From a virus (lineage: Duplodnaviria > Caudoviricetes): 57,201 nucleotides of DNA. Positions 1 through 31,764 of the stretch are shown piece after piece. Within the stretch, counting starts at the first letter, position 1. Every line of letters starts with the position of its first letter. Position numbers and translations under genes: made by a program. The notes below the pieces were generated by a model. That model searched no databases. It saw only the letters and a list, made by a program, of their open reading frames with translations, and was not told the DNA's origin. Location of the stretch: positions 1 to 57,201 of IMG/VR virus record IMGVR_UViG_3300036766_001162. The stretch is one strand, 5' to 3'.

Positions 1-152
1 CCCACGCCGCCGTACATGATATTGTGGGAAAAGGAGGCGTGCTGCATCCCCAGTGCCACCATGGGCGACCCCAGGAATGCGATCATGGGGTCGGGATTGC
101 ACTTCTTGACCCCCGCATTGCAGCTCCCGGTGCAGTCCGCATCACTGAAGCA
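1..152 (+). repeat. Terminal direct repeat copy 1 (probable assembly circularisation overlap)
   Basis: 1-152 equals 57050-57201 except G26 vs T57075. Confidence 0.95.
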
Positions 153-2588
153 GATAGTGCCCCGGGTGGTCGTGCAGGAGGCATCACAGGTCATCCCCCA
201 GTCCGCCCCGAATGGCGCCGAGCCTTTGTTGATGTAGTTACCCACTACCTGGATTCCCGCTCCACCCGCGGCAATGGGGGCGCCCGCCAGCCCCATAAAT
301 CGGTTCCCCGTTATGCTGGTATTCACGAGACCGTCAGTGCGGGTTCCTGTGGAGAATCCTCGCCAGCCGTTGTAGCAGATATTGCCCTCAACCACGTTCC
401 CCGTTGCGAGATTGTCGTCCAGGATACACTCGGGATGGAGCGCGGTGGTGAGCCCGTTCGGATTGGTGATGATGTCGAGCTCGAAGCAGGTATTCAGGGC
501 AATTTTGGATATACCCCCGAAGACGTTATTCTGCCCCAGCCAGATACACGCCTTGCTCGGATGGTAAATGATATTGTCGGCAATCGTGGCCCCGAACGCC
601 GTCTGATCCATCTTGATCCCCGTCTGGAGGGTCTCGACGGCAAGACTCACCACCTGATTGCCCGTAATGACGGCATTGCTATTGCTGGTCAGGATGCCGA
701 CGCCCGTGGCGCCACTGCCCTCAACGTAGTTCGTTTTCAGGTCGGCGTTGGTAGCCTGGGCACTGATCCCAATGCAGCTCCCAGCAATCCCCTTGATGTT
801 GTTCCCCGTCGCATGGTCATTGGCCCCGGACATCAGGATGCCCGTGCAGCCCGTGGCGCCCGTGATGAAGCCAAGCTTGTTCTCGATCGCGGTGGCATCG
901 GTCCCCGTCAGCGCAATGCCCGTGGCGCCCGCGGCGAGATCGAACGCATAGCTCTTCGCCACCATGCCGAAGTTCCCGACGCTATAGCCTTGCGATTCCT
1001 TCCCCGGCCCCGCCGTGGAGCTGGGCCAGATCGTCGATTCGTCGATCCGGGTGTTGGCGCCCCCGATGATGCCCGCCGTGCTTCCGCGGCCCCACACGCG
1101 CAGCAGTTGCGAATCGATCCCCACACTCACGCCATTCGTGACCGCCACCGTGGGTTGCACGTTGGAGGTAGCCGCGTTGAATGCCCCATAGCAGCACTTC
1201 CCGGCATTCGCCGCGAAGCAACTGGAGTTCGCCGGGGTGCCGGGAATTGGCGACGAGCAATCCGTGATCTCGCGGGCAACGTTCGTGTCATAGAGGGTCG
1301 CCTGGTTCTCGGTCTTGATGCCGAAGTCCCCAGTAAAGTGGTCCCAGACATTGACCCCGGCGAAGGTCGCATTGAACGTGCGCGCCAGGTCCACGGCATT
1401 GATGCGTCCAGGGCCGCTGGGTGGCACGATCGTCGCATCGGGGTGGGTGTTCGGCGTCCCACTACACGTCCCCCCGGGCGTCTTGCAGTCCGCGATGCGG
1501 AGACACAGGCTCCCGGTATCCGCCGGCACCGCGGCCCCGAGCGACGCATCCGCCACGTTGTCGGTGAACTGCTGGGTGGTGTTGTCGGATTGCGTGCCCA
1601 CCAGCAACCAGTTACCGGTGTCCCCCGCGATCCGGCGATATACCTTCCGTGATGTCGTGCCCACCGGTCCGAGCGCGATGTTGACCGTGACCTGGCCATG
1701 GGTGCCATCCGTCGTGAGGATACCCGAGGTCGCAGACACCCCTCCCTGCCCGTTGGCATTGTTGAAGGTCACTTTCCACGAATGCGTGCCGTTGGTGATG
1801 TTCCCCGCCGCGGTGATGAGCGCCACGACCGGCGTCGTTGGCACCGCGCCGGCACAATCCGTTTGCGCTTCGCACCGGGCGCCCGGCGTGGCCGCCGCAC
1901 CATCACACTCCTGCCGACAGGGATCGCCCGCGTTCGTGCCGGCGACGCACCGTTGGTAGGGGTCCGACTGATACGTCCAGACGCTGCACCCCTCGAGGAA
2001 GATATCCGAGGACTTTGCGTCCGTGTCCCTCAACATCTCGTACGTCGCGCCGCTGGTGGGTGCGAAGCACGTGGCGGCCGTGCAGGGACTCGTCCCCGCG
2101 ACGCCGAAGGACGACGTACACGTGCCGCCCCCAAGGCATTCCGCCGTCGCCTTACACGCGGCGCCAGGATACGTCCCACCGGAGCAATACTGGCGGAGCG
2201 GGGCAAAGCCCGCAGAGAGGTCTTCGCATTGGATATGCGTGTTGTCCTGCACCGCGAGCGCCGAAAAGATGCAGCAGCTCGGACAGGTCGCGCCGATGCC
2301 GCACCCGTTGGTCTGGTCGGTCGTGTCCAACGTACAGGCGAGCCCGGAGCGGGCGCCGTTGGCGCAGGTGCCGGAGGTCGGGGACGCGAGCGTCGGCACA
2401 CAGCCCGTCGGGAGGAACAGCGTCTTCCCCCCCGCGACGGCGGTACTCAGCGCGGTGTTGGTCTGCGACGTGGCATCGACGGTGCCCGTGCAGTTGGCGT
2501 AGTCGTCCAGCCGGATTTGATGCCGCAGGGGATTCATCCCCGCGGCAATCAAGAGGAGGAGGAGGGCCCCGAGGTTCAGGCGTCGCAT
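1..2588 (-). CDS. N-terminal part of an about 1182-aa Cys-rich, signal-peptide-bearing beta-helix (tailspike/adhesin-like) protein that continues across the junction; absent from the ORF track
   Basis: ATG at 2588 (MRRLNLGALLLLLIAAG...). I read the minus frame codon by codon to base 1 and found no stop. It is in frame with MIAFLGSP at 86, equivalent to 57135. It has CxxGxxxGxxC motifs and ITGN/VEGN beta-helix-type repeats. Confidence 0.85.
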   Translation of the reverse strand, partial: MRRLNLGALLLLLIAAGMNPLRHQIRLDDYANCTGTVDATSQTNTALSTAVAGGKTLFLPTGCVPTLASPTSGTCANGARSGLACTLDTTDQTNGCGIGATCPSCCIFSALAVQDNTHIQCEDLSAGFAPLRQYCSGGTYPGAACKATAECLGGGTCTSSFGVAGTSPCTAATCFAPTSGATYEMLRDTDAKSSDIFLEGCSVWTYQSDPYQRCVAGTNAGDPCRQECDGAAATPGARCEAQTDCAGAVPTTPVVALITAAGNITNGTHSWKVTFNNANGQGGVSATSGILTTDGTHGQVTVNIALGPVGTTSRKVYRRIAGDTGNWLLVGTQSDNTTQQFTDNVADASLGAAVPADTGSLCLRIADCKTPGGTCSGTPNTHPDATIVPPSGPGRINAVDLARTFNATFAGVNVWDHFTGDFGIKTENQATLYDTNVAREITDCSSPIPGTPANSSCFAANAGKCCYGAFNAATSNVQPTVAVTNGVSVGIDSQLLRVWGRGSTAGIIGGANTRIDESTIWPSSTAGPGKESQGYSVGNFGMVAKSYAFDLAAGATGIALTGTDATAIENKLGFITGATGCTGILMSGANDHATGNNIKGIAGSCIGISAQATNADLKTNYVEGSGATGVGILTSNSNAVITGNQVVSLAVETLQTGIKMDQTAFGATIADNIIYHPSKACIWLGQNNVFGGISKIALNTCFELDIITNPNGLTTALHPECILDDNLATGNVVEGNICYNGWRGFSTGTRTDGLVNTSITGNRFMGLAGAPIAAGGAGIQVVGNYINKGSAPFGADWGMTCDASCTTTRGTICFSDADCTGSCNAGVKKCNPDPMIAFLGSPMVALGMQHASFSHNIMYGGV

Positions 2589-2599
2589 GATCCGCTCAG

Positions 2600-2881
2600 T
2601 CATGGAGGGACGGGCATCCCGGGGAGCGCCGGAGTCGGCGTCGCGCCCAGCGCCCCCGCTTCGTCGGCCATGGCCCGCCGACGATCGGCGACCTCGGCAT
2701 CGAAGGCTGTCCCCTCGGCAGCGAGTGCCACGACCGACCGGCCCAGCACCGCGGGCCCAGCACCGAGGTGCGCGCTGATGTTGCAGACCGGCAATATCCA
2801 CGAGCGGGGGAACCAGAGCAGGTAGGCGAGCGCAATCCATCCCGTCCACGCCATGGCGGTAAACGCGCTGCGCCACACCAC
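2600..2881 (-). CDS. Small hypothetical protein with hydrophobic N-terminus
   Basis: GGGAGG RBS before GTG 2881; fits the operon tiling. Confidence 0.5.
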   Translation of the reverse strand: MVWRSAFTAMAWTGWIALAYLLWFPRSWILPVCNISAHLGAGPAVLGRSVVALAAEGTAFDAEVADRRRAMADEAGALGATPTPALPGMPVPP

Positions 2882-2897
2882 CTGGGCCCTCCCGGGG

Positions 2898-3311
2898 TTA
2901 GAGGGCGGATTCGAAGCCGCGAATGTCGGATGTACCATCGCTGATCACCCAAATGTCGATCGGTCCGATCGGCAAGATGCCGGTGTCGCCGAGTTGTGCG
3001 AGTTTGACCCCAGTCGCCGCCGTCACGCCTGACGTAAAGCCGAAATAGGCGACACTTCCGCTCGCGTTTTGGATCAAGACGCCGCGGCGGCCCGTCTGCG
3101 GCGTTGTGACAATCTTCGCGGCCGTCGTGGTCGCCGTGAAGTTGAAGCCCACCACGGTCCCGAATGCCGGCGGGCTGGCGGGGTAGGGATGGGTCGCGTC
3201 GGCATCCACGCCATCCGGCGTACGTAGCAGGACGCGCTGGTGCTTGACGCCCCCAATATCCTTGGAGGCGATGACATCGCCGGTAGCCGGGAGGGTATTG
3301 TTGTCTGCCAT
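2898..3311 (-). CDS. Putative virion structural/decoration protein
   Basis: 137 aa, beta-rich (GVLIQNASGSVAYFGF..TGVKL); lies in the late operon. Confidence 0.7.
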   Translation of the reverse strand: MADNNTLPATGDVIASKDIGGVKHQRVLLRTPDGVDADATHPYPASPPAFGTVVGFNFTATTTAAKIVTTPQTGRRGVLIQNASGSVAYFGFTSGVTAATGVKLAQLGDTGILPIGPIDIWVISDGTSDIRGFESAL

Positions 3312-3340
3312 CTCGTCGCCCCGCTCGAGCGATCCCGAGC

Positions 3341-3814
3341 TCAGTCAGCGGTGAAGGCGAGTTGCCCGATCGCAAAGCTGAACGTGACCCCGCTCAGGAC
3401 GACGACGCCCACGGCCCCGTTGACCGTGCCGGCCATCAGGAGGTTCCCGGCGGACGACGCATCATAGAGCCCGCACCACTTGATGGCCGCGCCGCCGAAC
3501 CAGTCGGCCGATGCTTGCGGGAACGTCACCGCGAGCTTATTGGTGACTCCCCACGCCGTGCCGCTGACCGCCGAGATGTTCCAGCTCACGGCGTTGCCCG
3601 ACGCATCGTCGGCGTCCTTTGCCATGGCGACGCGCGCGTAGGAGCCACCGCTCAGCTCGCCAGCGCTCACGTCGGCCGGATCGGTCGAGTGCAGCGACAC
3701 CCACAGGTTCGTGGGGCCGGTGGCGGCGAGCGCCGTGGCCGCGGCACCGTCCTTATTGGTCTTGAAGAGCCACTGGATTAGGCGCGTCTCGAAATAGGTA
3801 CTGAAGCCTGCCAT
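3341..3814 (-). CDS. Conserved phage structural protein (family often annotated as tail fibre/Gp80-like)
   Basis: Motifs LWVSLHSTDP..GELSGGSYARV, VTFPQASADW, GLYDASSAGNLL; GAGGAGG RBS. Confidence 0.75.
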   Translation of the reverse strand: MAGFSTYFETRLIQWLFKTNKDGAAATALAATGPTNLWVSLHSTDPADVSAGELSGGSYARVAMAKDADDASGNAVSWNISAVSGTAWGVTNKLAVTFPQASADWFGGAAIKWCGLYDASSAGNLLMAGTVNGAVGVVVLSGVTFSFAIGQLAFTAD

Positions 3815-3817
3815 AGG

Positions 3818-6800
3818 TCACCCCTCCTCCGCGTTCTTGTCAGATAGCACCAGCAAAAGATCGCATACGCAGCGCGGATGCGCTGTCGGCGCGTCGTCAC
3901 CACTCGGGAATGCCGCGTCGATCGGCACGACGCCGGCCGCGGCATTCGAGTCGCAGTTGCTCGTTACGACGTTCTCGGCTATAAAGAAGCCAGCATCTGC
4001 CGTCAGGTTGAACACCTCGCAGGAGGCCATCCGATGAGCCGTCATCATCACCCGCTCGAACCCGGCGTCATGCGGCGCGTAACCCGCCTTTATCTGCGCG
4101 AGCAGCGTTCGCTTCTGGACGTTGCCGCCGCGACCGGCCTCACATACACGCGCATCCGGAACGCACTCCTGCGCGCGGGATATCCGCTGCGTGGCCGCAC
4201 GGAGGCGGCGAGCCATGTCGTCGCCGCTGCCAAACGCCGAGAGTCGATGATGGCGCGCTATCAGGCCGGCCAGCCACTCGCGAAGATAGCGCAAGCCCTT
4301 GGCCTCACGAGGAGGAATGTGGTGCATCACCTCAGCCAAGCGGGTATCGACCTGCGCCAGCGCCCGGCCATTGCGACCAGCGAATTGCACCGCCTGTACT
4401 TCGATCGCGGCATGTCCGCGCAAGCAATCGGCATGCGGGTGGGAATCTCTGCTGTTACCGTGGGCCAACGTCTTCGCCGCGCGGGCTATACTCTCCGTTC
4501 CAACAGCGATGCCCTCGCACGCTGGTATCAGGGGGTCACCAAGGCCGAGCGCCTCAATCGCCTGCGCGCCGCGCACGCCGAGACGCCGAAGGCCCGCGAG
4601 CGCCGCGGCAATTTCGGTTCGGATACGGAACGCCGTCTCTACGAGTTGATCGCAGATCACGGACGCTTCGCCGTGCAGAAGGCCGTGGGCCGTTACAGTG
4701 TGGACATGGCTACCGATACCGTCGCCGTGGAAATCGCCGGCGGACGTTGGACGGGTCGCCGTTCGTCCCGTAAACGCACCGACTACCTCCTCCAGTCGGG
4801 CTTCCACGTGATCGAAATCGTATGCAGTGCCCAGAGCCGATTTCAGCCAAGTGCCGCTGAGCAGGTAATCGCCTTCCTTCAGGAGGTGAAGCGGCTTCCA
4901 CCCGGCATCCGTGAGCACCGGATGGTTCGGGGTTCCGGTCAGCCGATGACCACTCGACAGGTCCACATCGACTACCGTCCCGCGGTAGTGTCGGCGGAAG
5001 GTGCGATGTAGCGCGCCCGTCGAGACGCGCATGTCGCCGATCAGGCATTCATCGTCCGTGTCGTGCTCACTCCCGAGGACCCATTCCTTGCCCGCGACCT
5101 CGCCGCTGGCCTTCCAGGTCTCGAGGTTGCCGCGGACGAGCGCGTTGCTGATCTCGGTCCGCGCAATCAGCGCGGCCCGCTCGTCGCTGAAGGCGTACGA
5201 GTCCGCCAGCGCGGTCGCGAGATCGGCCTTGCTCCACTGCTCCGCAAAGGCCTCCGCGATCGTGCCGCGCAGGAGTTCGCGGGTGCCATCTGTGATCGCG
5301 TAGGCCGCGTTCGGGTTCTCGCCCACGCTCCCGTCGGGGAGCGTCCGCATGCCGACGAGTTCGGCGGCGCGCGCGTTTGCTGCCGCGACGATCGCGGCAT
5401 TCGGGAGCGCGAAGTCGGCCGCGGTCGGCACCGCCAGGGTGAGCGTCGCCAATGCCTGCGTGGCCCCGCGCTGCCCGATGTCCCCGAGGAGCTGCGCTGT
5501 GGGATCGATCAGAACCGTGAAGCCCGCCATGTCGACGGCGGCCAGCACCTGGTCGACGATGTCCGCAGGCTCGTCCTTCCGCAGCGCGACGCCCACGCCC
5601 TTCGCCAGGTACGGCGCCGCCGCCGCGAGGACCGCCGCCTGCACCGTGACGAAGGCTCCGCGGACACGCTTCGCCAGGGCGCGCTCGGCCTTCTGCACCG
5701 GCGCGGTCGCGCGGGCCGCACCGGCCAGCAACTTCCGCTTCGCGCGGGGGAGGCTGGCGATCGTGACGCGCACCGGGGCTCGCACCGGGGCTCGCTTCGC
5801 CGCGGGCCGCGCGTTCGCCTTGGGCTCCGGCGTCGGCGGCGCGGCCGCGGCGGGCGGCTTCCCACCCCTCGGCGGAGGCGTCCCGCCGTCGGGCGGTGCC
5901 TCGGGTGGTAGCGGCTTCCCATCTGGCCCGAGAACGACCGGGACCACCGGGACCACCGGCTCGGGCGGATTCAGGATGTCGGCCAGCCGCACGGCGCCGT
6001 TGGCCCCACCGTAGATCAGGGCCTGGTCGCCATCCGGGACCGGGTCGAGGCTCTTCGTCTGCCGGACCTCGTTGATCGTGAGGACGCCGAGCTTCAGGTA
6101 CCGCTCGTCGAGCTCGCTCTGTGTCCTCGCATCCGGCGTCCGGGCATCGTCGAAGAAGAAGCCGAGGTCGGTGAAGCCGAAGTCGTGGTGGATGACGTCG
6201 TACGTCATGAGGTCCTGGAAGAACCCCATCAGCGGCAGCGTGCCCTCCTCGAGGGCGACGTCCTGCATAATCTCGCCTGTCGCGCGATTAGTCTGCTTGA
6301 TGAATGCCGTGGGAGGTATATCGAAAGCAAAGCAGATTTTCCGCAGCAGCCACTCGTCGAACTCGTCTTTCAGCGGCGGCAGGCGCGTCTCGTGGAGCGT
6401 GACGCCGGCGCCCCCTGGCACGAACTTGACCTTGCGGCGCTCCTCGGTGCCGCCCTCGAAGAAGCTCGCCCACTTCTGCGCGAACTGCTCGACCTGCGGG
6501 GCGCTCCACCCTTCGGGGAGCGTGACGATCATGTCGGGGATATTGCCCGCCGAGTAGTACTCAAGCTGGGACGTCACGCGGCGGAGCGCCAGGTTGATCG
6601 TGACGAGGATCTGCTCTGTGGGCCCGAACCCGTAAGCGTGCGTGCTCCGCGGATTCCGGGGCCGATAGATCAGCTCGTCCGCCGTGAAATCCGTCGTCGG
6701 CATGCCCTTGATGATCTGGCGGTAGGCCGTTCCGCTGTCGGGCCGGTTCCCGCGTTCGTCGAGCACGGGACGAATGGTGCCGCCGTCGAAGATCTCGAGC

Positions 6801-7309
6801 GCGTAGAGGCCGCCGGCGCGGGTCGGACGCCGGAAGATCGTGAGCGCGTCGACCACCAGCACTTCCTCGAGCGCCTTCCGCAGCCACGTGTTCCACGGCA
6901 GCACGCGGTCGGGCACGCGGAGCAGCGCTTCCACCTGCTGCACTCGCGCATCTCCGGGCTGCACCTTCGCCCGCGGATCGAGGGGCCGCACCGACCAGCC
7001 GAAGCGCGCCATGCGCGACTTGACCGTCTCGATCACGATGCGGACGGAGTCGGAGCCGTCGGCCAGCGCCCGCAGCATCGGGAAGCCGGTCAGCTCCTCG
7101 CCGCGCGGCGTGGTGCGCAGGTTGAAGCCGCTCGGGTAGTCCCAGGAGCGCGCGGGCACCGTGATCGGCGCCACGACCGGTGGTAGCGACCCGGGGCCGA
7201 ACCAGCCGGTCAGTCGCTCATAGACCCGCTGCGCCACCGAGCGGCGGGTATCCGCCGAGGCGGCGACAAGGGTCGGGTCGATCGGCGTGCCCGACAGGCG
7301 GGACGCCAT
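3818..7309 (-). CDS. Portal protein fused to a MuF-like minor head protein, intein-containing (1163-aa precursor, about 799 aa spliced)
   Basis: Portal motifs (YGFGPTEQI, YYSAGNIP, ICFAFDIPP, GVLTINEVR), a Pro-rich linker, and MuF motifs (RAALIARTE, KEWV, FPSG..PTAHPRCVC). Confidence 0.9.
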   Translation of the reverse strand: MASRLSGTPIDPTLVAASADTRRSVAQRVYERLTGWFGPGSLPPVVAPITVPARSWDYPSGFNLRTTPRGEELTGFPMLRALADGSDSVRIVIETVKSRMARFGWSVRPLDPRAKVQPGDARVQQVEALLRVPDRVLPWNTWLRKALEEVLVVDALTIFRRPTRAGGLYALEIFDGGTIRPVLDERGNRPDSGTAYRQIIKGMPTTDFTADELIYRPRNPRSTHAYGFGPTEQILVTINLALRRVTSQLEYYSAGNIPDMIVTLPEGWSAPQVEQFAQKWASFFEGGTEERRKVKFVPGGAGVTLHETRLPPLKDEFDEWLLRKICFAFDIPPTAFIKQTNRATGEIMQDVALEEGTLPLMGFFQDLMTYDVIHHDFGFTDLGFFFDDARTPDARTQSELDERYLKLGVLTINEVRQTKSLDPVPDGDQALIYGGANGAVRLADILNPPEPVVPVVPVVLGPDGKPLPPEAPPDGGTPPPRGGKPPAAAAPPTPEPKANARPAAKRAPVRAPVRVTIASLPRAKRKLLAGAARATAPVQKAERALAKRVRGAFVTVQAAVLAAAAPYLAKGVGVALRKDEPADIVDQVLAAVDMAGFTVLIDPTAQLLGDIGQRGATQALATLTLAVPTAADFALPNAAIVAAANARAAELVGMRTLPDGSVGENPNAAYAITDGTRELLRGTIAEAFAEQWSKADLATALADSYAFSDERAALIARTEISNALVRGNLETWKASGEVAGKEWVLGSEHDTDDECLIGDMRVSTGALHRTFRRHYRGTVVDVDLSSGHRLTGTPNHPVLTDAGWKPLHLLKEGDYLLSGTWLKSALGTAYDFDHVEARLEEVVGAFTGRTATRPTSAGDFHGDGIGSHVHTVTAHGLLHGEASVICDQLVETAFRIRTEIAAALAGLRRLGVRGAQAIEALGLGDPLIPACEGIAVGTESIARAAKTLAHGNSRDSHPHADCLRGHAAIEVQAVQFAGRNGRALAQVDTRLAEVMHHIPPREAKGLRYLREWLAGLIARHHRLSAFGSGDDMARRLRAATQRISRAQECVPDARVCEAGRGGNVQKRTLLAQIKAGYAPHDAGFERVMMTAHRMASCEVFNLTADAGFFIAENVVTSNCDSNAAAGVVPIDAAFPSGDDAPTAHPRCVCDLLLVLSDKNAEEG
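3957..3985 (+). promoter_or_regulatory. Candidate sigma70-type promoter for the antisense nuclease gene
   Basis: TTGCTC (3957-3962), 17-nt spacer, TATAAA (3980-3985), about 50 nt upstream of ATG 4034. Confidence 0.55.
4034..5011 (+). CDS. Antisense intein-internal protein with 3x HTH and a Vsr/DUF559-like PD-(D/E)XK nuclease domain; putative homing endonuclease (325 aa)
   Basis: AGGAGG at 4021-4026, 7 nt before ATG. Three HTH repeats end in AG(Y/I)xLR. The C-terminal domain reads SDTERRLY..QKAVGRYSVDMATDTVAVEIAGGRW..RTDYLLQSGFHVIEI. Confidence 0.85.
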   Translation: MSRHHHPLEPGVMRRVTRLYLREQRSLLDVAAATGLTYTRIRNALLRAGYPLRGRTEAASHVVAAAKRRESMMARYQAGQPLAKIAQALGLTRRNVVHHLSQAGIDLRQRPAIATSELHRLYFDRGMSAQAIGMRVGISAVTVGQRLRRAGYTLRSNSDALARWYQGVTKAERLNRLRAAHAETPKARERRGNFGSDTERRLYELIADHGRFAVQKAVGRYSVDMATDTVAVEIAGGRWTGRRSSRKRTDYLLQSGFHVIEIVCSAQSRFQPSAAEQVIAFLQEVKRLPPGIREHRMVRGSGQPMTTRQVHIDYRPAVVSAEGAM

Positions 7310-7435
7310 CTAGGCTCGCGTGGGCGAGCGAAGACGCGCTCGCTCCGATCTAAGGCTCCGCACCACCGTGATCGTCTCCGCTCGCCCACCGTCGAACAGG
7401 AGGGAGGCGAATCCGAGCCATCACGCATGGACGCT

Positions 7436-7457
7436 TGCAGCCAGACTGCGGGGGTTG
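7436..7457 (-). promoter_or_regulatory. 22-bp motif copy 1 upstream of the portal gene (candidate late promoter/operator)
   Basis: TGCAGCCAGACTGCGGGGGTTG (+ strand), identical to 52518-52539. Confidence 0.6.
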
Positions 7458-7467
7458 TTCCGGAGGC

Positions 7468-7863
7468 TCAGGAGAGCGCCCCGTCGCCCGCGAAGATCGC
7501 GATGCGGCGGACGACGAGATTCTTCGGGTGGTCGTTCTGGCGGTTGCCGTCCAGGCGGATGACGCGCTCGTTCCCCGCCAGCGGGCGCCCGAGGCGCCCT
7601 TCCATGGTGATGCGCGCCAGGGACTTGTAGCCGAGCTGGTCGGCCCCGGGCACGCCGATGCCAACCAGGACGTAGTGATAGCCGCCCCGCAGGATGGTCG
7701 TTGGGGTGGTGGCGCGCCGGTGCTTGGCGTGCGCGCGCTGGCACGCGCGCGAGCAGGTGGGGGCCGCGGCCTTCACCTGCGCCGCCCGCCGGCCGATGGG
7801 GCCGCCGCAGAAGGCGCACGGACGGCGCTCGAGCGCCGGGAGGAAGCGCGCACGGGTGGACAC
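7468..7863 (-). CDS. Zn-finger plus degenerate HNH-like protein
   Basis: CAFC..CSRAC, then GYKSLARITMEGRLGRPL..ERVIRLDGNRQNDHPKNL: an HNH scaffold lacking the His residues. Confidence 0.7.
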   Translation of the reverse strand: MSTRARFLPALERRPCAFCGGPIGRRAAQVKAAAPTCSRACQRAHAKHRRATTPTTILRGGYHYVLVGIGVPGADQLGYKSLARITMEGRLGRPLAGNERVIRLDGNRQNDHPKNLVVRRIAIFAGDGALS

Positions 7864-8091
7864 GGTCAGGAGGAGCCCCGGGCGGCGTGGAGGTTATCCC
7901 ACCAACGAGAGAACTCGCGTATCTGGCCCTCCGTCCAGGGCTCCCTCGACTCCGGGATTGGGATGCCCCCTGCCGGAACAGTCGTGGCCCGGCGCCATCG
8001 CGTATCCTCCGCTTCGACAAAGCGCTGCGTCATGCCAGCAGCCAGCAGGGCGGCCACTGCCCCCGTCACCGCAGCACCGACAGCGCGGGCA

Positions 8092-8379
8092 CTAGATGCC
8101 CCACAGCGTCGGCCGCACGATCTGCTGCCGCTCCGCCTCCCGCTGGGCCGCGGCGGCGAAGAATCCCCGCAGCATCGTCCGGCCCTGTTCGTCGAGCAGC
8201 ATCGCCACGGCCGCACGCTGCATCGCCCCGATCCCTGGGGACTCCAGCACGTCGAACTGCGCCGAGTTGGGGCTGGCGAATCGGACCAGGAGCCAGGGCT
8301 GGCCTTCCTCGACCGGGGGCAGCTCCTGCACCGCCGGCTTGTCCGTGGGCAGCTTCCCGTTGATCTGTTCGTCGCTCAT
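8092..8379 (-). CDS. Hypothetical protein
   Basis: MSDEQINGKL...; ATGA coupling with the upstream gene. Confidence 0.55.
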   Translation of the reverse strand: MSDEQINGKLPTDKPAVQELPPVEEGQPWLLVRFASPNSAQFDVLESPGIGAMQRAAVAMLLDEQGRTMLRGFFAAAAQREAERQQIVRPTLWGI

Positions 8380-8627
8380 GCGTGCCTCCGTGAGATGAGA
8401 CGCCGCCACCAGGGCCGCGCCTGTTCGTGGTACTCGACGGCCGCGTCGACATGGGCGCGGAGCGCCACCGCCTCGGCGCCCGTGATGGGCACGAGGACGG
8501 TGCGGGTGCGGCTGCTCTTCAGCACGCGGAAGAGCCGGACGCCGGCGGGCGTCTCAACGGGGCAGTAGCTGCCCTCGGGGAGGTAGGGCTTCGGGGCAGT
8601 GCGGTCCGTGGCCATCATCGTGTGCAC
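8376..8627 (-). CDS. Hypothetical protein
   Basis: Tiles between terL and portal; start uncertain. Confidence 0.5.
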   Translation of the reverse strand: MHTMMATDRTAPKPYLPEGSYCPVETPAGVRLFRVLKSSRTRTVLVPITGAEAVALRAHVDAAVEYHEQARPWWRRLISRRHA

Positions 8628-8806
8628 CGCTGCTCGCCCTTGCCTTGCGGGAGTCGCAGGCCCACGCGGCCACCGGAGAGGAGCGCCGCCACCGCAACGG
8701 GCCCGACGTGCTCGAGACAGATCGGGCGACTCGTCGGGTCGTCCTCATCATCGAGCACGAGCTGGGCCCGCTTCGGGCAGGTCCCCATTCGGCGATCGTC
8801 GCTCAT
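8615..8806 (-). CDS. Hypothetical protein
   Basis: ATG at 8806 overlaps the terL stop (ATGA). Confidence 0.5.
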   Translation of the reverse strand: MSDDRRMGTCPKRAQLVLDDEDDPTSRPICLEHVGPVAVAALLSGGRVGLRLPQGKGEQRCTR

Positions 8807-10242
8807 GCTACTGCATCCTCCTTCGGCGCCTGCGCCGCCACCTTCGCGTCGAGCCAGCCCATGAGCCCGTGGTCCGTGGTCGCGAACGCGAGCATCATCG
8901 CCTCGGCGCGGTCTGGGCTTTTCACACCCCGCTTCTGCGCCTCCTCCTTGCTCTCGATCTCCATCTGGCCACGCGCGTTGTGGCGGTACCGGAGCCCGGC
9001 CAGCTGACTGACGGCGCGCTGGCTCCCGACGCCCGAGACGGCGCCGTCCTTGAAGCGCTGGCGGAGGCCGTCGTAGAGCTCGGCCTTCAGGTTCTTGTAG
9101 CGCTCCGAGTTCCGCGGGGCCTCGCCGACGTTGATGAACTCGACCGGGAAGCCCAGGTCCTCCAGGTGGCGGGCCAGGTAGTAGCCGATCCCCGCGCTGT
9201 CGACCTTCACCGAGCGGAGTCGCGGCTTGAACGGCGTCAGCGTCGCCACGATCTCGCCCCGCGGGTCCTGATTCGGCCAGGCCCGCTCGAGCAGCACGCG
9301 CGGCCCCTCGACCAGGTCGAGTACCGTCTCGTCTTCCCCGGGGCCCGCGACATCGATGCCCGCGTCGAGGGGGCCGCCGCCATCGGTGATGTCCCGCGCC
9401 TGCGCCGCCTCGAGCCAGGCGAGGCTGATGAGCGCGTCCTCGCTCTGCGCCGGGAACGATCCCAGGACGCGCGCCTCCCAGAGCGGGTGACCCGGCCCCC
9501 ACTCGGAGTGCTTCTCCTTCACCCACCGGCGCGTCGTCAGGTAGGGACGCACGTTCGTGTCGAGCGCCTCCTCCGGCATCCCGAGGATGTCCTCGAGCGT
9601 CAGCCCGGCCAGGTTCGGCGTGTCGAACGCGCCGATGGTGAACGGCGCCCAGCCGTCGCGGTTGTCGGTGAAGGCGTCATGAAACGGCCCGCTCGCAATC
9701 GTCGGATTCCCGAGGGCCAGGATTCGCACGTCGCCGCCGGCGCGCGCGCCTTCGATGGCCTCCCAGATGTCCGGCTTCACGCCGGGCGCCTCGTCGAGGA
9801 TGACCAGGATGTGGTTGCCGTGGAAGCCCTGGAACCGCACGCCCTCGTTGGTCGACAGGCCGATGGCGTAGTTCCCGGGGCCGAGCTTCAGCTCCGTGGT
9901 GTTGGCCTTCGGGTAGGCGATCCGCGCGCTCGCGATCGCCTTGTGGATCTCGCCCCAGAGCAGAAGCTCCACCTGCGTCCACGTGGGTGCCGTCGTAACG
10001 ACGATGCCGTCGTCGAAGCGCGTCACCCACCAGAGCGCCGCCAGGGCGGCGACCATGGTCTTGCCGCTGGCGTGGCAGGCCTTCACGGCGGTACGCGGGC
10101 GCGTCGCCACGGAGCGGAGGATGGCTTCCTGCGTGGCCCACAGGTCTTGCTGTAGAAACGTCTGAGCAAAGGCCACCGGATCCATCAGGCATTCGACGGC
10201 CTGGCCCTCCAGCCGTTCGCGATCGTCTCCCGCCGCGTTCAT
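8803..10242 (-). CDS. terL: Terminase large subunit
   Basis: Walker A ACHASGKT, Walker B ILVILDEA, LGNP, and an RNase H-like domain (GIDVAGPGEDET...SPDRAEA). Confidence 0.95.
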   Translation of the reverse strand: MNAAGDDRERLEGQAVECLMDPVAFAQTFLQQDLWATQEAILRSVATRPRTAVKACHASGKTMVAALAALWWVTRFDDGIVVTTAPTWTQVELLLWGEIHKAIASARIAYPKANTTELKLGPGNYAIGLSTNEGVRFQGFHGNHILVILDEAPGVKPDIWEAIEGARAGGDVRILALGNPTIASGPFHDAFTDNRDGWAPFTIGAFDTPNLAGLTLEDILGMPEEALDTNVRPYLTTRRWVKEKHSEWGPGHPLWEARVLGSFPAQSEDALISLAWLEAAQARDITDGGGPLDAGIDVAGPGEDETVLDLVEGPRVLLERAWPNQDPRGEIVATLTPFKPRLRSVKVDSAGIGYYLARHLEDLGFPVEFINVGEAPRNSERYKNLKAELYDGLRQRFKDGAVSGVGSQRAVSQLAGLRYRHNARGQMEIESKEEAQKRGVKSPDRAEAMMLAFATTDHGLMGWLDAKVAAQAPKEDAVA

Positions 10243-10706
10243 CGCCCCGCACCGCGCTTCTCGAGGAGCGCCCGGAGGGCCTCCAGCCCGAACACGGGCT
10301 GACCGTCCTTGCCCGTCACCTCATGCCGCTCGACGAACATTCCCAGGTGCTTCCCGATCAGTTCCAGTGCCCGGTTGGCGACCGAGCCCGCATAGACATA
10401 TTCGCCCGTCGGCTCCCCCTTCGAGTCGAGCACCGGCTCGGCTTGCAACGCGCGCTGCAGGTTCTTCCGTAGGTTCCGCAGTACCCAGTCCGCACTCAAC
10501 TCTGCCCGCTTCGTGCGCGCTGCCTTGCCCGCAGCGATGGCAGCGCCCACCCGAACATTCCCCAACAACCGCGGGCCCTGCACGTCCGCCGTCTTCGCGC
10601 TGTACCCGGCCCGGATCGCGGCCTGCGTCGCGTTCAGGTCCTTCAGGTATTCCTCGACGAAGCGGCCCTGGCGCGGCGTGAGCTTCCCGAGCGCGGTCAC
10701 GCGCAC
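10239..10706 (-). CDS. terS: Terminase small subunit
   Basis: LTPRQGRFVEEYLKDLNATQAAIRAGYS...ALELIGKHLGMF. Confidence 0.95.
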   Translation of the reverse strand: MRVTALGKLTPRQGRFVEEYLKDLNATQAAIRAGYSAKTADVQGPRLLGNVRVGAAIAAGKAARTKRAELSADWVLRNLRKNLQRALQAEPVLDSKGEPTGEYVYAGSVANRALELIGKHLGMFVERHEVTGKDGQPVFGLEALRALLEKRGAGR

Positions 10707-11197
10707 ATCTCGAACGCGCGCGGCGGCGCGGGCATTGGGGCGCGCGCCTCCCAGGGCTCGGCCAGCGGCGCGCCGCTGGGCTGGAACTGCCCGTGCCCCT
10801 CGCGCCGCAGCTTCCGCAGCTCGAAGAGGTCGGCGTGCTCCGGATGGTGCAGGAGGAAGAGCCGGCTGTAGAGCGCGTGGAGGTGATCGTTCAGCTTGAA
10901 CTCGGCGTCGTGCGTCATGGCGACGTGCACTTCCCAGCGCACGCGCTCCCAGACCATGCGGACGCCGTAGCGGTGGCTTTTCCGCTCGGACCGGGCCCGC
11001 GCCTGGGCCGCCTCAAGGGCAAACCGCTCGACCGCGCGGTAGACCTCGGGGTGCGCCGCATGGAACGCGAGGAAGCGGGCGAGCTTCTCGGTACGACCGA
11101 CCTGGTCCTGCACCTGGGCGATGAGGAGCGCCATGGCGGCGGCGACGGGGCAGGCGCGGGTCGGCTGCGCGAAGAGGGGGCCGAGCCCGGGCGTCAC
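10697..11197 (-). CDS. Conserved phage hypothetical protein
   Basis: FHAAHPEVY..FALEA..VWERVRWE..FKLND..YSRLF..LFELR; coupled to its neighbours. Confidence 0.65.
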   Translation of the reverse strand: MTPGLGPLFAQPTRACPVAAAMALLIAQVQDQVGRTEKLARFLAFHAAHPEVYRAVERFALEAAQARARSERKSHRYGVRMVWERVRWEVHVAMTHDAEFKLNDHLHALYSRLFLLHHPEHADLFELRKLRREGHGQFQPSGAPLAEPWEARAPMPAPPRAFEMCA

Positions 11198-12186
11198 GCG
11201 CGGGCCTCCGCCTGGTCGGCGATCCGCACGCCCTCGGCCAGCACGTCGTCGAGCGCGTCCATGATGAACCGGATGTCATTGGCGAGGGCAGCGAACGCGC
11301 GGAACTTGGCGACGAACGCTTCGGACAGTTCGATGGCCTTCTCGGCGTGCTCCCGCGATCGGAGGGCGAGTCGGGCGTACTTCGGCAGCGGCGTCTCCCG
11401 CCCGTGCGGTCTCGTCGCACGTCCGGGGATGATCGTCTCGGCCACGGGCGCCGTCGGCGAGGGCGGGGGCGGAGATAGCGGGGAGATCGGCACATCCCCG
11501 GCGAGGTCGAGGATGCGCTGGCCGAGCGTGCCACAGTGCGGCCCGAGCCCCTGCGCCTCGATCCGCGAGACGCGGGTGACCGACAGGCCGAGCAACGCCC
11601 CCATCTCGGTCTGGGAGAGGCCACGCGCCTTCCGGGTGCGCCGGAGGAGCGCCCCGATCTCGGGCCCCATGATGGGGGGTGCTACCGGCGGCGCGGCCGC
11701 GACCGCCGCCGCCAGCGCGGCGATCTTGGCCTGGCACTCGGGAGACGGCTTCCGGCGCCCGTGCTCGAGGTTGCCGACGTAGACCTTGCAGACCCCGAGA
11801 CGCTCGGCGGCTTGTGCCTGCGTGAGGCGGGCCCGTGCGCGAATCCCGCCGAGGACGGCGCCCCAATCGCGCGCGCCGGGCGTGGGGGCATCTGCGGCCG
11901 CCGCCACCCGGGGCGTGCCGTTCCCCCGCGCGGGCGGATCCTCGACCGCAGCCGGGGCCATGGGCGGGGGCGCGGCCGGCACGGCGTCGTGCCGCGGCCA
12001 GGTGCCCGCGTGCTGCGCCTCGCGGCGGATCAGGTCCGAGAACCGCGGCGACGGATCGTCCATCCCGGTCTCGATCAGGTTGACGTCGTTCCGCGACATC
12101 CCGAGCCGGGCGGCCCACGCGCGCTGGTCGAGGTGCAGCGCCTGGCGCGTCGCCTTCGACACGTCGCCGTAGTCGACGAGGTTCAC
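11194..12186 (-). CDS. Transcriptional regulator with three XRE-type HTH domains
   Basis: Three HTH units (LDQRAWAARLGMSRNDVNLIETG; LTQAQAAERLGVCKVYVGNLEHG; LSQTEMGALLGLSVTRVSRIE) separated by Pro/Ala linkers. Confidence 0.85.
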   Translation of the reverse strand: MNLVDYGDVSKATRQALHLDQRAWAARLGMSRNDVNLIETGMDDPSPRFSDLIRREAQHAGTWPRHDAVPAAPPPMAPAAVEDPPARGNGTPRVAAAADAPTPGARDWGAVLGGIRARARLTQAQAAERLGVCKVYVGNLEHGRRKPSPECQAKIAALAAAVAAAPPVAPPIMGPEIGALLRRTRKARGLSQTEMGALLGLSVTRVSRIEAQGLGPHCGTLGQRILDLAGDVPISPLSPPPPSPTAPVAETIIPGRATRPHGRETPLPKYARLALRSREHAEKAIELSEAFVAKFRAFAALANDIRFIMDALDDVLAEGVRIADQAEARA

Positions 12187-18922: not shown

Positions 18923-19879
18923 ATGCCCGAGCCGATGACCGTCGCCGCCTACGCCGCCCGCTGGTTGCGGCGATTGCCGGCCCTCGTAGAACCGCCCACC
19001 GTCGCCAGCTATGAACGCCAGATGCGGCTGCACGTCCTGCCCTTGCTCGGAGAGCGGACGCTGGCGGCCCTGACGCAGCCCGATGTCCGACACGCGCTGT
19101 TCGCCCTCCGCGCCAAGGGCCTCAGCAAAACCACGCTCCGGAATCCGCTCTGCGCGCTGCAGTCCATGCTGAACGAAGCCGCCGCCGACGGCCTGGTGAT
19201 CGGCAACGCCGCTCTCGGCGCGGGCAAGCGCATCGTGCAGACCGGCCTCCGCCCAGTCCGGCATCCCATGAGCGAGGCCGAGTTGCTGCGCTTCATCCCC
19301 GCCGTCGACCACCACTACCGGGAGATCATGCTGTTCCTGGTGCTGACGGGCCTCCGCATCGGCGAGGCCGTCGGGTTGCCGTGGGGCGCCGTCGACTTCG
19401 CCACGCGCCGGGTCCGGGTCGCCCAGACGTGGACATACGGGAAGCCCACGCCCACGAAGAACCGCGAGGTCCGCTTCGTCGACCTCTCGCGCGGCGCCAC
19501 GGACCTGCTCGCCGTGCGCCGCGATCAGCACCCCACGGATGCGTGGGTGTTCCAGTCGGCGGTCCGGGCGCTCCCCTGCGACTCCAGCATGGTCCGGCGT
19601 GCCATGCGGGCTGGGCTCGCCGCGGCCGACCTGCCCATCGCCTGGACCCCCCATGCGCTGCGGCACACCTTCGCCACCCGCCTGCTCGGGCTCGAGGACC
19701 CGCAGACCGTGCAACGCATGCTCGGGCACGCCAGCATCCAGACGACCGTGGACCTCTATGGCGCCTTCCGGAAGCGCCGGCCACTGGCCTCGCTCGACCA
19801 GCTCGACCTGCCCGTGACCGCCCACCACCGCCCCCCGCTCCCGTTACGCCCGCTGCGATCCGTGAAGCTGCGCGCGTGA
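18923..19879 (+). CDS. int: Tyrosine integrase
   Basis: SAM-like N-domain; catalytic R (TGLRIGE), K (TKN), HALRH, LGH and Y (VDLYG). Confidence 0.95.
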   Translation: MPEPMTVAAYAARWLRRLPALVEPPTVASYERQMRLHVLPLLGERTLAALTQPDVRHALFALRAKGLSKTTLRNPLCALQSMLNEAAADGLVIGNAALGAGKRIVQTGLRPVRHPMSEAELLRFIPAVDHHYREIMLFLVLTGLRIGEAVGLPWGAVDFATRRVRVAQTWTYGKPTPTKNREVRFVDLSRGATDLLAVRRDQHPTDAWVFQSAVRALPCDSSMVRRAMRAGLAAADLPIAWTPHALRHTFATRLLGLEDPQTVQRMLGHASIQTTVDLYGAFRKRRPLASLDQLDLPVTAHHRPPLPLRPLRSVKLRA

Positions 19880-20212
19880 GGAGGCCCCCCCGACCGCCGT
19901 AGGCGGATGCAGGGGCTCGGGGCTGGGGGCCGATGCCCGAATGCACCCACCATTCGAGCGCGGGCGGCGCTTGCCCGGCTGCGGGGCTGGCGCTGGCGCT
20001 TCTGGTGCCGGCGCGAGCCCGGCCAACTCCTCGATGGTGACCTCGTGACCCCGTTCGCGCGTCGCCTTAGCGACGGCGATGGCGTGCCGGGCGTCGAAGA
20101 TGCGGCCCGCCTTGAGCCAGCCGTACACGGCGGGTCCGCTGACTCGACAGATCACGGCAACGTCCTCGACACGCCCTCCGAGAATCTGCATCGCGCGTTC
20201 GATCCCTGTCAT
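19844..20212 (-). CDS. Cro-like HTH regulator
   Basis: GGRVEDVAVICRVSGPAVYGWLKAGRI; first gene of the leftward unit. Confidence 0.75.
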   Translation of the reverse strand: MTGIERAMQILGGRVEDVAVICRVSGPAVYGWLKAGRIFDARHAIAVAKATRERGHEVTIEELAGLAPAPEAPAPAPQPGKRRPRSNGGCIRASAPSPEPLHPPTAVGGASSRAQLHGSQRA

Positions 20213-20327
20213 GCCCGAGCGTCTAGCATGGCGCGCGCGCCGCCGTCAAGCTGAGCTTCCAGCGTTCTGCAGCACCACTTTCAAGCCTACTTGACACGTA
20301 CCCTTTCGCCCGGCTATATGCTGCGGC
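20213..20327. promoter_or_regulatory. Divergent promoter/operator region
   Basis: Minus strand: TTGACG(20249-44)-N18-TAGACG-N7-ATG. Plus strand: TTGACA(20291-96)-N18-TATATG-N7-ATG. Palindromes AAGCTgAGCTT (20248-58) and TCAAG-N4-CTTGA (20281-94) each overlap a -35 box. Confidence 0.7.
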
Positions 20328-20531
20328 ATGCCTGACGGAATGCCGCCCGCCGCTTGGACGCCCGAGGCGATTCGGGCGCTCCGCAAACGGCTCGGATTGG
20401 TGCAAGACGATTTCGCGGCGCTCGTCTGTACGCGCCAGACAGTGGTCTCTCGCTGGGAAGCCGGGGCGGCACACCCCCTGCGCGCGTTCTGTCGGAAGCT
20501 CGACCTGCTCGCCGCCGAGGGCGCCCGATGA
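20328..20531 (+). CDS. Small XRE-family HTH regulator
   Basis: IRALRKRLGLVQDDFAALVCTRQTVVSRWEAG..P. Confidence 0.85.
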   Translation: MPDGMPPAAWTPEAIRALRKRLGLVQDDFAALVCTRQTVVSRWEAGAAHPLRAFCRKLDLLAAEGAR

Positions 20532-30612: not shown

Positions 30613-30836
30613 ACGATCCCCGCTTTCTTGCGGCCCTCGTCGAGGGCACGCGCTACGGCGGCCTCGGTCTCGGCGGCCGCCTGGTCTCGAACCTCCTGGT
30701 CACTGTGTGGCGCCCGCCAGCCGCCCCGCACCATCGCCCACGCCTTGGCCCACAAGCCGAGGGCCTGCTTGGGGCTGAGCGCCGGGGTCGACTCTTCGAG
30801 GATGCGGCGCACTTCCCCGTCGCTACCGGTGCTCAT
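30609..30836 (-). CDS. Hypothetical protein (lysis module)
   Basis: Coupled on both sides. Confidence 0.55.
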   Translation of the reverse strand: MSTGSDGEVRRILEESTPALSPKQALGLWAKAWAMVRGGWRAPHSDQEVRDQAAAETEAAVARALDEGRKKAGIV

Positions 30837-31339
30837 GCGCCTGCGACCTCATGGAGCAGGGCCACCCACCCGAGCACATGCGCCGGATAGTTTAAATTGC
30901 CACCGCCATTATAGCGGAGCAGGCTCGCCTTCACGGGGTCGACCGCCGCTGCCGCTTGCGCGAGGCAGCGCGCGAGTTGCCGGCACCCCGCCTCAATCCC
31001 GGTCTCGGGATCACACAGATCGGTCGGGTACTCGAGGACCATGCCGCGCTCGAGCGCGACCGGGAACATCATCTGCGTCAGCCCGTAGGAGGCCGACACG
31101 AGGTCCGGGTACTTCGCCCACTTCGACAGTCCCGCCTTCGCCAGGTCCGCCAGGATGCCCGCCTGATACCGCGCCCAGAACTCCCGCTCGACGCGCACAG
31201 CCCCCGACTTGCCCGCACTCTCCTGGGCGATGAGCCCGAGGAGTAGCCAACGGTCGAGGCCGTATCCGCCGACCCGCCGATCGACGGTCGGCGCGTACCG
31301 GAGCACCCGCTGGCAGACGGTGGCTTCCGCCGGCGTCAT
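30833..31339 (-). CDS. Endolysin, lytic transglycosylase (SLT)
   Basis: LIAQESAG, SYGLTQM, LLRYNGG. Confidence 0.9.
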   Translation of the reverse strand: MTPAEATVCQRVLRYAPTVDRRVGGYGLDRWLLLGLIAQESAGKSGAVRVEREFWARYQAGILADLAKAGLSKWAKYPDLVSASYGLTQMMFPVALERGMVLEYPTDLCDPETGIEAGCRQLARCLAQAAAAVDPVKASLLRYNGGGNLNYPAHVLGWVALLHEVAGA

Positions 31340-31764
31340 GGCTTCCCCTCGCCGAGCACCCACGGCCGGGGCGCCTCCTGCTGGGACAGGTCGGCGCCGC
31401 CAGGCACGGCCTCGAGATGCAGCCGCAACGGGCGCCGGGGGCGCACCTCAAGGTCGCGCTGCGCCTGCGTCAGCAGATCCAGGCGCTTGATAATTAGGTC
31501 CAGTTGGATGCTGATGCTGCGGAGCTCCGCGAGAAACTCGGTCTTCCGCACCAGCTCGCTGGCCGGCGCAAAGTCCTTGGTCAGCTCGCGAAGCCGGCCC
31601 ACGTCCTCCGTATTCCGCTGGACCCGTTGCACCAGGGCTTCGTCGGTGCGCGCCAGTTGGACGTAGACGCCCACCACCGCCCCGAGTCCGCCCGCGAGCA
31701 GCCCCGCGATGGCAATCCCGACAGTCGCCCATCCGACGCGCCCCCGGCCTTCGCGTGCGGTCAT
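31336..31764 (-). CDS. Membrane-anchored coiled-coil protein (holin/lysis accessory)
   Basis: N-terminal TM segment followed by a coiled coil; upstream of the endolysin. Confidence 0.6.
   Translation of the reverse strand: MTAREGRGRVGWATVGIAIAGLLAGGLGAVVGVYVQLARTDEALVQRVQRNTEDVGRLRELTKDFAPASELVRKTEFLAELRSISIQLDLIIKRLDLLTQAQRDLEVRPRRPLRLHLEAVPGGADLSQQEAPRPWVLGEGKP

Follow-up and report, generated by a model that had tools for sequence, protein, structure and literature searches.

The window analyzed here is a 57,201-nucleotide (nt) stretch of DNA with a GC content of 68.7% from a sediment phage of the Caudoviricetes (IMG/VR record IMGVR_UViG_3300036766_001162), and it contains an intein that carries a Vsr-like endonuclease gene on its opposite strand. 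The host gene of the intein (3818 to 7309, minus strand) was recognized from its open reading frame (ORF), translation, and Pfam matches as a portal-MuF-like head-morphogenesis fusion of 1,163 amino acids (aa), intein included. Residues 90 to 417 match Phage_portal (E = 5.5e-14), residues 693 to 755 match Phage_Mu_F weakly and under the curated cut-off (E = 0.013), and residues 758 to 1115 match Intein_splicing, again below the cut-off (E = 1.2e-5; 25.7 versus 35.8 bits). The intein, a 364-aa mini-intein (3956 to 5047, minus strand), comprises residues 755 to 1118 of the host protein (Cys755 to Asn1118), with Cys1 encoded at 5045 to 5047, the terminal Ser-Asn at 3956 to 3961 (Asn at 3956 to 3958), and the +1 Cys at 3953 to 3955. 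The antisense gene (4034 to 5011, plus strand) lies within the intein, shares its codon triplets with intein residues 13 to 338, and encodes a 325-aa Vsr/DUF559-like protein with three helix-turn-helix (HTH) repeats. Intein blocks F and G (3956 to 4033, minus strand; residues 339 to 364, RMASCEVFNLTADAGFFIAENVVTSN) are the sole part of the 3' half of the intein that is free of antisense overlap, and they carry the upstream signals of the antisense ORF.

The intein begins with CLIGDMRV and ends with ...FFIAENVVTSN|C. The block B Thr-x-x-His motif is present (T39-P-N-H42), and C1, H42, and N364 are invariant across an alignment of 44 inteins, with T39 nearly so. The C-terminal Asn is followed directly by Cys (N364|C), and the penultimate residue is Ser363 instead of the usual His, as a first-pass annotation of this DNA had reported. 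A penultimate His is usual in inteins but not obligatory. An AlphaFold2 (AF2) model of the intein is confident at residues 1 to 120 and 320 to 364 and poor at residues 123 to 306. The top 12 Foldseek matches of this model are all intein splicing domains (probability 1.00, best E = 2.2e-3), headed by chains of the Mtu RecA mini-intein, and the modeled fold is that of a HINT domain. The splicing parts are those of a mini-intein, and the long linker between them is merely the antisense reading of the nuclease gene. GC content at third codon positions (GC3) is approximately 0.7 on either strand of the intein region (3818 to 5017) versus approximately 0.9 in the host-gene part (5018 to 7309), which marks the intein region as a compositionally foreign insert.

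The protein encoded on the opposite strand matches Sigma70_r4, a helix-turn-helix family (E = 1.2e-7), and DUF559 (E = 4.4e-4) in Pfam. Its AF2 model, with a mean pLDDT of 87.5, contains three HTH modules, an alpha-beta nuclease core, and a C-terminal hairpin. Foldseek ranked 3r3p first with this model (probability 0.99, E = 0.026), and also found 3hrl (probability 0.98) and Vsr itself (1cw0, probability 0.93). A profile of 49 homologues, searched against PDB sequences, found 3hrl, a DUF559 structure (E = 1.6e-4), and 3r3p, which is I-Bth0305I (E = 6.4e-3); the E values for the Vsr fold are modest because the query comprises several domains. On these models the 325-aa protein has a Vsr-like nuclease fold. 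The three HTH repeats lie in tandem at 4034 to 4390 (plus strand); the extra ones also fold confidently in the model, and the closest relatives (L044, P0003, and P0004) start approximately 90 to 100 residues later, with fewer HTH repeats than the window nuclease.

An ORF opposite a GC-rich gene may be no gene at all, its frame being open, and its motifs present, by chance. For the window alone this cannot be called surprising, as an open 325-codon antisense frame has a P value of 0.28 at 68.7% GC. The HTH and DUF559 matches, the confident model, and the Vsr-family structures at the top of the structural matches argue against this explanation, which is already refuted by homologues that reach E = 1e-69 and in which the endonuclease frame, and not that of the intein, is conserved; we consider it scarcely credible. 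In tblastn searches across loci the endonuclease frame matched with E values down to 3e-27, while the best match of the intein middle part was 7e-7. Codon changes between the window and L044, its nearest relative, were counted if silent in only one of the two frames. In the linker, 33 changes were silent only in the nuclease frame and 4 only in the intein frame, and across nuclease residues 219 to 273 the counts were 15 and 2, respectively. The balance is reversed at intein residues 14 to 65, where nine changes were silent only in the intein frame and three only in the nuclease frame. The endonuclease frame dominates outside this segment, and the 325-aa ORF is a real gene under purifying selection. 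As the plus-strand protein is under selection in the lineage of the window, it must be expressed.

Both frames are nevertheless kept open. TTA, CTA, and TCA codons are completely absent from 48 of 48 endonuclease ORFs examined, including that of the window, so that the intein frame stays open and production and splicing of the head protein remain possible. Given the codon usage of the extein of each locus, this absence is unexpected at P < 0.05 in 28 of 43 loci and at P < 0.001 in 14 of 43. Two folded domains share positions 4688 to 5008 on opposite strands: the N-terminal HINT part (intein residues 14 to 120) lies opposite the catalytic strands and C-terminal hairpin of the endonuclease (residues 219 to 325), an overlap of approximately 105 codons that is indicated by the models and by conservation by frame. 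A nearly invariant motif of the intein frame in this region, FHGD (H107, G108, and D109), is the complement of the invariant VAVEI catalytic strand of the nuclease and is probably a shadow of that strand, not an intein block.

The open intein frame also bears on a possible fractured-gene arrangement with a split intein, in which two proteins are joined in trans, as described by Dassa et al. (2009; PMC2677866). The same Vsr-like nuclease family is found there between N- and C-terminal splicing parts, as it is here. However, the minus-strand frame of the window has no stop from 7309 to 3821 and forms one ORF, not two, the corresponding frame is open in nearly all related loci (41 of 42 and 46 of 50 in the two sets described below), and the nuclease gene lies on the opposite strand, unlike the arrangement in the published account. 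A split intein is therefore a very improbable explanation of this locus.

Only three near-length relatives of the 325-aa protein were found in a large protein collection. Translated searches matched 103 phage records (Salmonella, 62; Pseudomonas, 14; Gordonia, 9; Escherichia, 6; Burkholderia, 4; and others), 3 loci in genome_contigs, 36 in viral_contigs, and 50 in metagenome_contigs. Not all of the 103 records represent the antisense element, as the Burkholderia jumbo-phage matches cover residues 26 to 155 only and fall under separately annotated endonuclease genes. Phage records inspected individually have the match antisense to a gene annotated as “minor capsid” or “head morphogenesis,” and six of these seven show a portal gene beside or near it; only the head gene is annotated over the match, and two records list extra “hypothetical protein” features. 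Among the contig loci, 41 of 42 in the first sets and 46 of the 50 from metagenomes have the endonuclease homologue antisense, at phase 0, to a long open frame containing an intein N domain; 19 rows of the metagenome set duplicate earlier loci. All exceptions lack an intein match: L039 in the first set and four metagenome loci, three of which run to the contig end, the fourth (L087) having 166 nt beyond the match.

The nuclease of L044 is 56% identical to that of the window (tblastn) and shares its extein context; no closer relative was found in genome_contigs, viral_contigs, or metagenome_contigs. P0003 and P0004, known as proteins only, are 52% and 43% identical, respectively. Two further loci possibly represent decaying copies, namely, L089 (44%), whose nuclease frame is broken by a frameshift and which belongs to group B (defined below), and L038, which has an intein N domain and a nuclease match without a recognizable block F/G. 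Three loci (L059, L060, and L061) are identical across the 95 nt of intein compared, counted from the Asn codon, and the 30 nt of preceding extein differ at many positions, a pattern that reads as the footprint of recent homing into diverged alleles. With respect to the host gene, a Pro/Ala-rich stretch (approximately residues 445 to 560) joins the portal and MuF-like parts in the single window ORF, unlike most relatives, in which the portal and MuF-like genes are separate but adjacent. ORFs of >1,000 aa also occur in the related loci L015, L022, L035, and L042, and one Arthrobacter phage record is annotated as “portal and MuF-like fusion protein.”

The expression signals of the antisense gene were compared across the family by anchoring all loci on the Asn codon of the intein and reading the plus strand. 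The start codon is found at +60 to +78, inside the intein, in all 50 distinct loci. In 38 of these it is the complement of the codon just before the V-[YF]-[DN]-L motif of block F (33 ATG and 5 GTG); this codon is usually CAT, for His, and the block F His before V-Y-N-L may be held by the start codon on the opposite strand (CAT being the complement of ATG). A Shine-Dalgarno core lies 4 to 16 nt upstream of the start in 35 of the 50 loci, typically as GGAGG, the complement of Asn-Leu-Gln codons, and in most relatives a stop codon interrupts the plus frame after the end of the intein and before this start. Furthermore, a TTGACA-N16-18-TATAAT promoter matching at least 10 of 12 positions, with the −35 box at +4 or +5, is present in 16 of 34 distinct loci, 7 of which match at 12 of 12. 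Three further loci carry TGNTATAAT (8/8) at +6, giving four in all with L004, which also scores 10/12. When synonymous codons were resampled with the intein protein fixed, the two-hexamer promoter had p ≤ 0.05 in 17 of 34 loci and either form in 22 of 34. Jerseyvirus jersey and Pantoea phage AH01 carry TGCTATAAT, and Escherichia coli phage fEg-Eco06 carries TTGACT-N16-TATAAT.

A larger set of 46 distinct loci falls into group B (19 loci), group A (12 loci), and 15 loci belonging to neither, some of which have similar boxes in other registers. Group B has the full two-hexamer promoter, written in V/L-S-S-N and S-L-Y codons, and group A has an extended −10 (TGnTATAAT), written in I-I-x-H-N codons, both within the last 35 bp of the intein. 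Codons that are rare elsewhere are used at these positions: in group B, TTA encodes the Leu within the −10 in 14 of 19 loci (background, 8.7%) and TCA encodes the Ser within the −35 in 16 of 19 (background, 11%), and in group A, ATA encodes the Ile in 8 of 12 (background, 17%). The group B endonucleases share only 36 to 65% pairwise identity (median, 48%), and these loci are therefore not near-copies. This strongly supports a consensus promoter held at a fixed register in relatives by rare synonymous codons. The presence of expression signals inside the C-terminal splicing codons of the intein, under constraint from both strands, is very probable as a property of the family.

The two promoter forms differ in the splicing residue that they accompany. 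The penultimate intein residue is Ser in 19 of 19 group B loci and His in 10 of 12 group A loci, while the other 15 loci have seven His, seven Ser, and one Lys; thus, the full-promoter type accompanies loss of the penultimate splicing His, and the extended −10 type keeps it. If this reflects cause, a DNA-level regulatory signal of a selfish nuclease dictates residues of a protein-splicing active site. However, a penultimate His costs only 1 of 12 promoter matches, and the link between promoter and Ser is a correlation, not a necessity. In the window itself, the −35 TTG is what any intein ending in ...NNC-AAC supplies at almost no cost, so that Ser in place of His was not needed for this box. 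That the expression signals of the antisense gene have shaped the catalytic blocks of the intein is thus conceivable, with the chances slightly against it.

In the window, a −35-like TTGCTC (3957 to 3962, plus strand) and a −10-like GCTATAAA (3978 to 3985, with TATAAA at 3980 to 3985) are separated, from TTGCTC to TATAAA, by 17 nt. They are followed by a Shine-Dalgarno AGGAGG (4021 to 4026), 7 nt, and the ATG at 4034 to 4036. The first-pass annotation had placed all of these signals correctly and had also correctly derived the −35 box from the terminal Ser-Asn codons (GTT-GCT at 3956 to 3961 is the complement of AGC-AAC) and TATAAA from TTT-ATA (Phe-Ile). With its two preceding nucleotides, the −10-like element is the complement of Ala, Ile (ATA), and Phe (TTT) codons, and AGGAGG stands opposite the block F codons for Ala-Ser-Cys. 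The window and L044 have in common an ATG at +78 and a GGAG formed by the same codons, and the ribosome-binding site and start codon of the window are, by this comparison, well supported. The functions of the −35-like and −10-like elements are putative. When the synonymous codons of the last 26 intein codons were resampled 2,000 times, a TATAA-type −10 arose with p = 0.037 and a 6/6 Shine-Dalgarno with p = 0.063.

Several observations weigh against TTGCTC and TATAAA as a functional promoter. The hexamers are weak, matching the consensus at three of six positions (the TTG of TTGACA) and five of six positions, TATAAA lacking the final T of TATAAT; owing to these low matches, they were not called in a sigma-70 scan of positions 1 to 12000, which yielded no sites at all. 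In the same resampling, a hexamer pair of at least 8/12 arose with p = 0.14. The hexamers are not kept in L044, which reads TGTTACAAT at +6 to +14 where the window has CGTTACGAC, and AATAAA at the position of TATAAA. In addition, the window boxes, at +1 and +24, are 4 nt out of the group B register. The AT-rich codons may reflect the lower GC of the insert alone. The first-pass annotation had considered TTT and ATA unexpected in this genome, and this holds for the 43 high-GC3 frames of the window, where TTT makes up 6.8% of Phe codons and ATA 3.7% of Ile codons, but less so for the intein, which as a whole has lower GC than its host gene and in which 6 of 15 Ile codons are ATA and 3 of 11 Phe codons are TTT. 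Finally, an alphaproteobacterial host is a guess that rests weakly on the best phage matches of the window portal, to Brevundimonas phages, at 40% identity over half the protein.

Other properties of the site favor a promoter. TATAAA occurs once in the 57-kb window. TTG-N20-TATAA also occurs only once on both strands, at this site (expected, 0.02; 2 of 100 shuffles match), as does TTG-N18-GCTANAW (expected, 0.05), although both patterns were chosen after the site had been seen. In the Caulobacter RpoD consensus (TTGaCgS/GCtANAWC), as given in PMC8144410, the −10 requires no final T, and GCTATAAA fits 7 of its 8 positions. The only other site of the TTG/GCTATA(A/T) kind in the window, TTGACA-N16-GCTATAT (20291 to 20319, plus strand), lies directly before an HTH_3 (cro-like) gene and has a −10 of the same kind as the GCTATAA in the intein. 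What is likely an early promoter of the phage itself thus has this same GCTATA(A/T) −10.

These lines of evidence separate two readings of the window copy. In one, the cassette holds for the family, but TTGCTC/TATAAA does not function as a promoter in this copy; the gene would then be transcribed from elsewhere (for example, from an antisense start in the C-extein or in the genes downstream of the portal gene) or only weakly, or would be on the way to decay. The 8/12 match, the resampling result, the silence of the sigma-70 scan, the absence of shared hexamers in L044, the lower GC of the insert, and the loss of a catalytic-position His in the clade (Thr, Asp, Asn, and Asp in four members) are all consistent with this. 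Purifying selection on the endonuclease frame (33 versus 4 changes in the linker relative to L044) nevertheless indicates that the protein is made, and no plus-strand gene or other promoter-like site lies upstream in positions 1 to 12000. Moreover, the only TATAAA and only TTG-N18-GCTANAW of 57 kb stand exactly where relatives keep their promoter, with a −10 resembling that of the cro-like gene. A nonworking promoter is the less likely reading, at well under even chances, but far more plausible than either a chance ORF or a split intein. The other reading, a composite element with its core signals in 78 bp and the window hexamers as its active promoter, is the one that we favor as probable; taken by themselves, the exact TTGCTC and TATAAA boxes have somewhat better than an even chance of being the promoter.

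The claim that the cassette is self-contained and under dual coding constraint can thus be retained for the family signals and for the GGAG and ATG shared with L044, and not for the exact hexamers, which are weak and absent from L044. As to the proposed comparison of synonymous sites in homologous inteins, the rare codons TTA, TCA, and ATA are held in the boxes of the family, and the hexamers of the window are not found in L044.

In the favored reading the protein would still cut DNA. The acidic active-site residues of the family are retained in the window protein, with D224 and E233 invariant in 49 of 49 sequences and E199 present in 45 of 49, their correspondence to I-Bth0305I residues being by profile alignment only; R248 is likewise retained among the conserved residues. 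However, Thr240 (4751 to 4753, plus strand) replaces the His of the GGxWH motif, which 41 of 49 relatives possess and which aligns by profile with the His of the 3hrl GGQH motif. The three closest relatives have Asp (L044), Asn (P0003), and Asp (P0004) in this column. The window nuclease has no histidine general base at this position, which counts against a cutting enzyme, and it may not cut DNA. It may instead cut by a variant mechanism or bind DNA only. The nuclease may be altered or inactive in the clade of the window, with the protein still under selection.

The mechanism proposed for the composite element is as follows. A mini-intein interrupts the MuF-like part of the phage portal-MuF gene and forms with its passenger a composite mobile element; the opposite strand, in the same triplets, encodes a homing endonuclease of the free-standing Vsr-like type with HTH DNA-binding repeats. 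The start codon at 4034 is the complement of a His codon with which block F begins, the ribosome-binding site (4021 to 4026) is the complement of block F codons, and the predicted promoter (approximately 3957 to 3985) would occupy the terminal 35 bp of the intein, comprising block G and the end of block F, with transcription starting near 3992. All core signals would thus fall within the 78 bp between the C-terminal boundary of the intein and the ATG and would be copied with the intein on homing into an intein-free allele. The principal sigma factor of the host would read the weaker hexamers of the window, probably before late head-gene transcription, and the antisense protein would still cut DNA. 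If the promoter fires, its transcript would by geometry oppose the portal mRNA, as the first-pass annotation had pointed out. A look-up of sequencing runs covering 3800 to 5100 listed no RNA run and a single DNA run, which may be the source sample.

Three alternative signals for the window gene were considered and rejected. A hairpin hiding the ribosome-binding site, as in Dassa et al. (2009), is not supported by the predicted fold of 3990 to 4050, which is no better than that of shuffled sequences (z = −0.22). The upstream in-frame ATG at 3878 has no Shine-Dalgarno, and most relatives have a plus-frame stop before the start; this ATG is the complement of a conserved extein His and is also present at −78 in L044. 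A T4-type late promoter would read TATAAATA, where the window reads TATAAAGA, and the phage is not T4-like.

Elsewhere in the window, the TTGACA-N16-GCTATAT site ends 8 nt before the ATG (20328) of the 67-aa HTH_3 gene, the mRNA of which may be leaderless, and a YdaS-like gene (19847 to 20212, minus strand) diverges from this gene. The two genes (20291 to 20531, plus strand, and 19847 to 20212, minus strand) are likely an immunity or early switch. A perfect GCTATAAT at 30909 to 30916 (minus strand) lies inside the 3' end of an ORF (30833 to 31363, minus strand), approximately 70 nt before the next minus-strand ORF (ATG at 30836). It has no TTG at −35 and may be an internal promoter or a chance match.

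The family has implications beyond this locus, which by itself adds only modestly. Most records do not call the antisense nuclease genes borne by inteins, and annotation therefore misses a real gene; gene callers and intein surveys would do well to inspect the opposite strand. The promoter, ribosome-binding site, and start codon fit between the C-terminal boundary of the intein and block F and would travel with the intein into new alleles. A host-sigma-type promoter inside a late head gene, if functional, could make the nuclease an early product, before head-gene transcription collides with its own. The family is also a test case of two-strand constraint, with regulatory DNA written over splicing-block codons and approximately 105 codons encoding opposed folded domains. 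The prediction is directly testable in carriers that can be cultured, namely, E. coli phage fEg-Eco06, Pantoea phage AH01, Jersey-like phages, and Gordonia phages.

Nucleases of this family and intein-borne nuclease genes have been described in several other arrangements. Split-intein fractured genes accompanied by free-standing Vsr-like endonuclease genes (Dassa et al., 2009; PMC2677866) resemble the window in having the same nuclease family between intein parts, control elements of its own, and a phage setting. As described there, the intein is split by stops into two proteins and the controls are 5' hairpins and T4-type late boxes (TATAAATA), whereas the window has a continuous intein frame, an antisense nuclease, and sigma-70-like signals in splicing-block codons. 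I-Bth0305I (PDB 3r3p), the prototype EDxHD homing endonuclease (Taylor et al., 2011; PMC3239194), shares with the window protein a Vsr-like fold, acidic residues corresponding to E199, D224, and E233, and an order of N-terminal DNA-binding modules and C-terminal nuclease. As presented there, it is encoded on the sense strand of a group I intron and has NUMOD motifs, whereas the window nuclease has repeats resembling sigma-70 region 4 and a Thr where 41 of 49 relatives have His. Antisense LAGLIDADG ORFs in complete inteins (Synechocystis DnaX and others), as cited by Gosselin, Arsenault, and Gogarten (bioRxiv 10.1101/2025.01.02.630785), likewise place a homing endonuclease ORF opposite a complete intein, with a different nuclease family. 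A literature search for an intein-internal promoter or antisense transcripts in such genes returned no relevant report: the sole mention in PMC8425127 is of an “intein-containing capsid morphogenesis protein,” and in PMC10914365 “intein” occurs in the reference list only.

The closest known system is that of Gosselin, Arsenault, and Gogarten (2025), whose paper reports that full inteins in the minor capsid genes of actinophages contain antisense VSR-like nuclease ORFs and proposes that a free-standing nuclease gene invaded an intein. The window shows the three features of this layout, an open unsplit frame, an antisense ORF inside the intein, and a MuF-like host gene (the last by a weak match). 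As in that study, the unsplit intein lies in a MuF-like minor capsid gene with the nuclease antisense, the nuclease combines a Vsr/EDxHD-like core with an extra helical DNA-binding part, and the in-frame middle of the intein has no recognizable fold; Gordonia phages such as Vivi2 and Malisha are among those matched by the window protein. Relative to that description, the window differs in its overlap of approximately 105 codons with the folded N-terminal HINT part, in its portal-MuF fusion host gene in a sediment phage of 68.7% GC, and in a nuclease with three HTH repeats and without the WH histidine. The main text of the paper, supplements aside, contains neither “promoter” nor “ribosom.” The layout of an antisense nuclease in an intein is thus already published, and the window is a diverged member with a weaker promoter; within the literature searched, the novel details are the placement of the consensus promoter, ribosome-binding site, and start codon in blocks F and G and the association of these signals with the penultimate residue.

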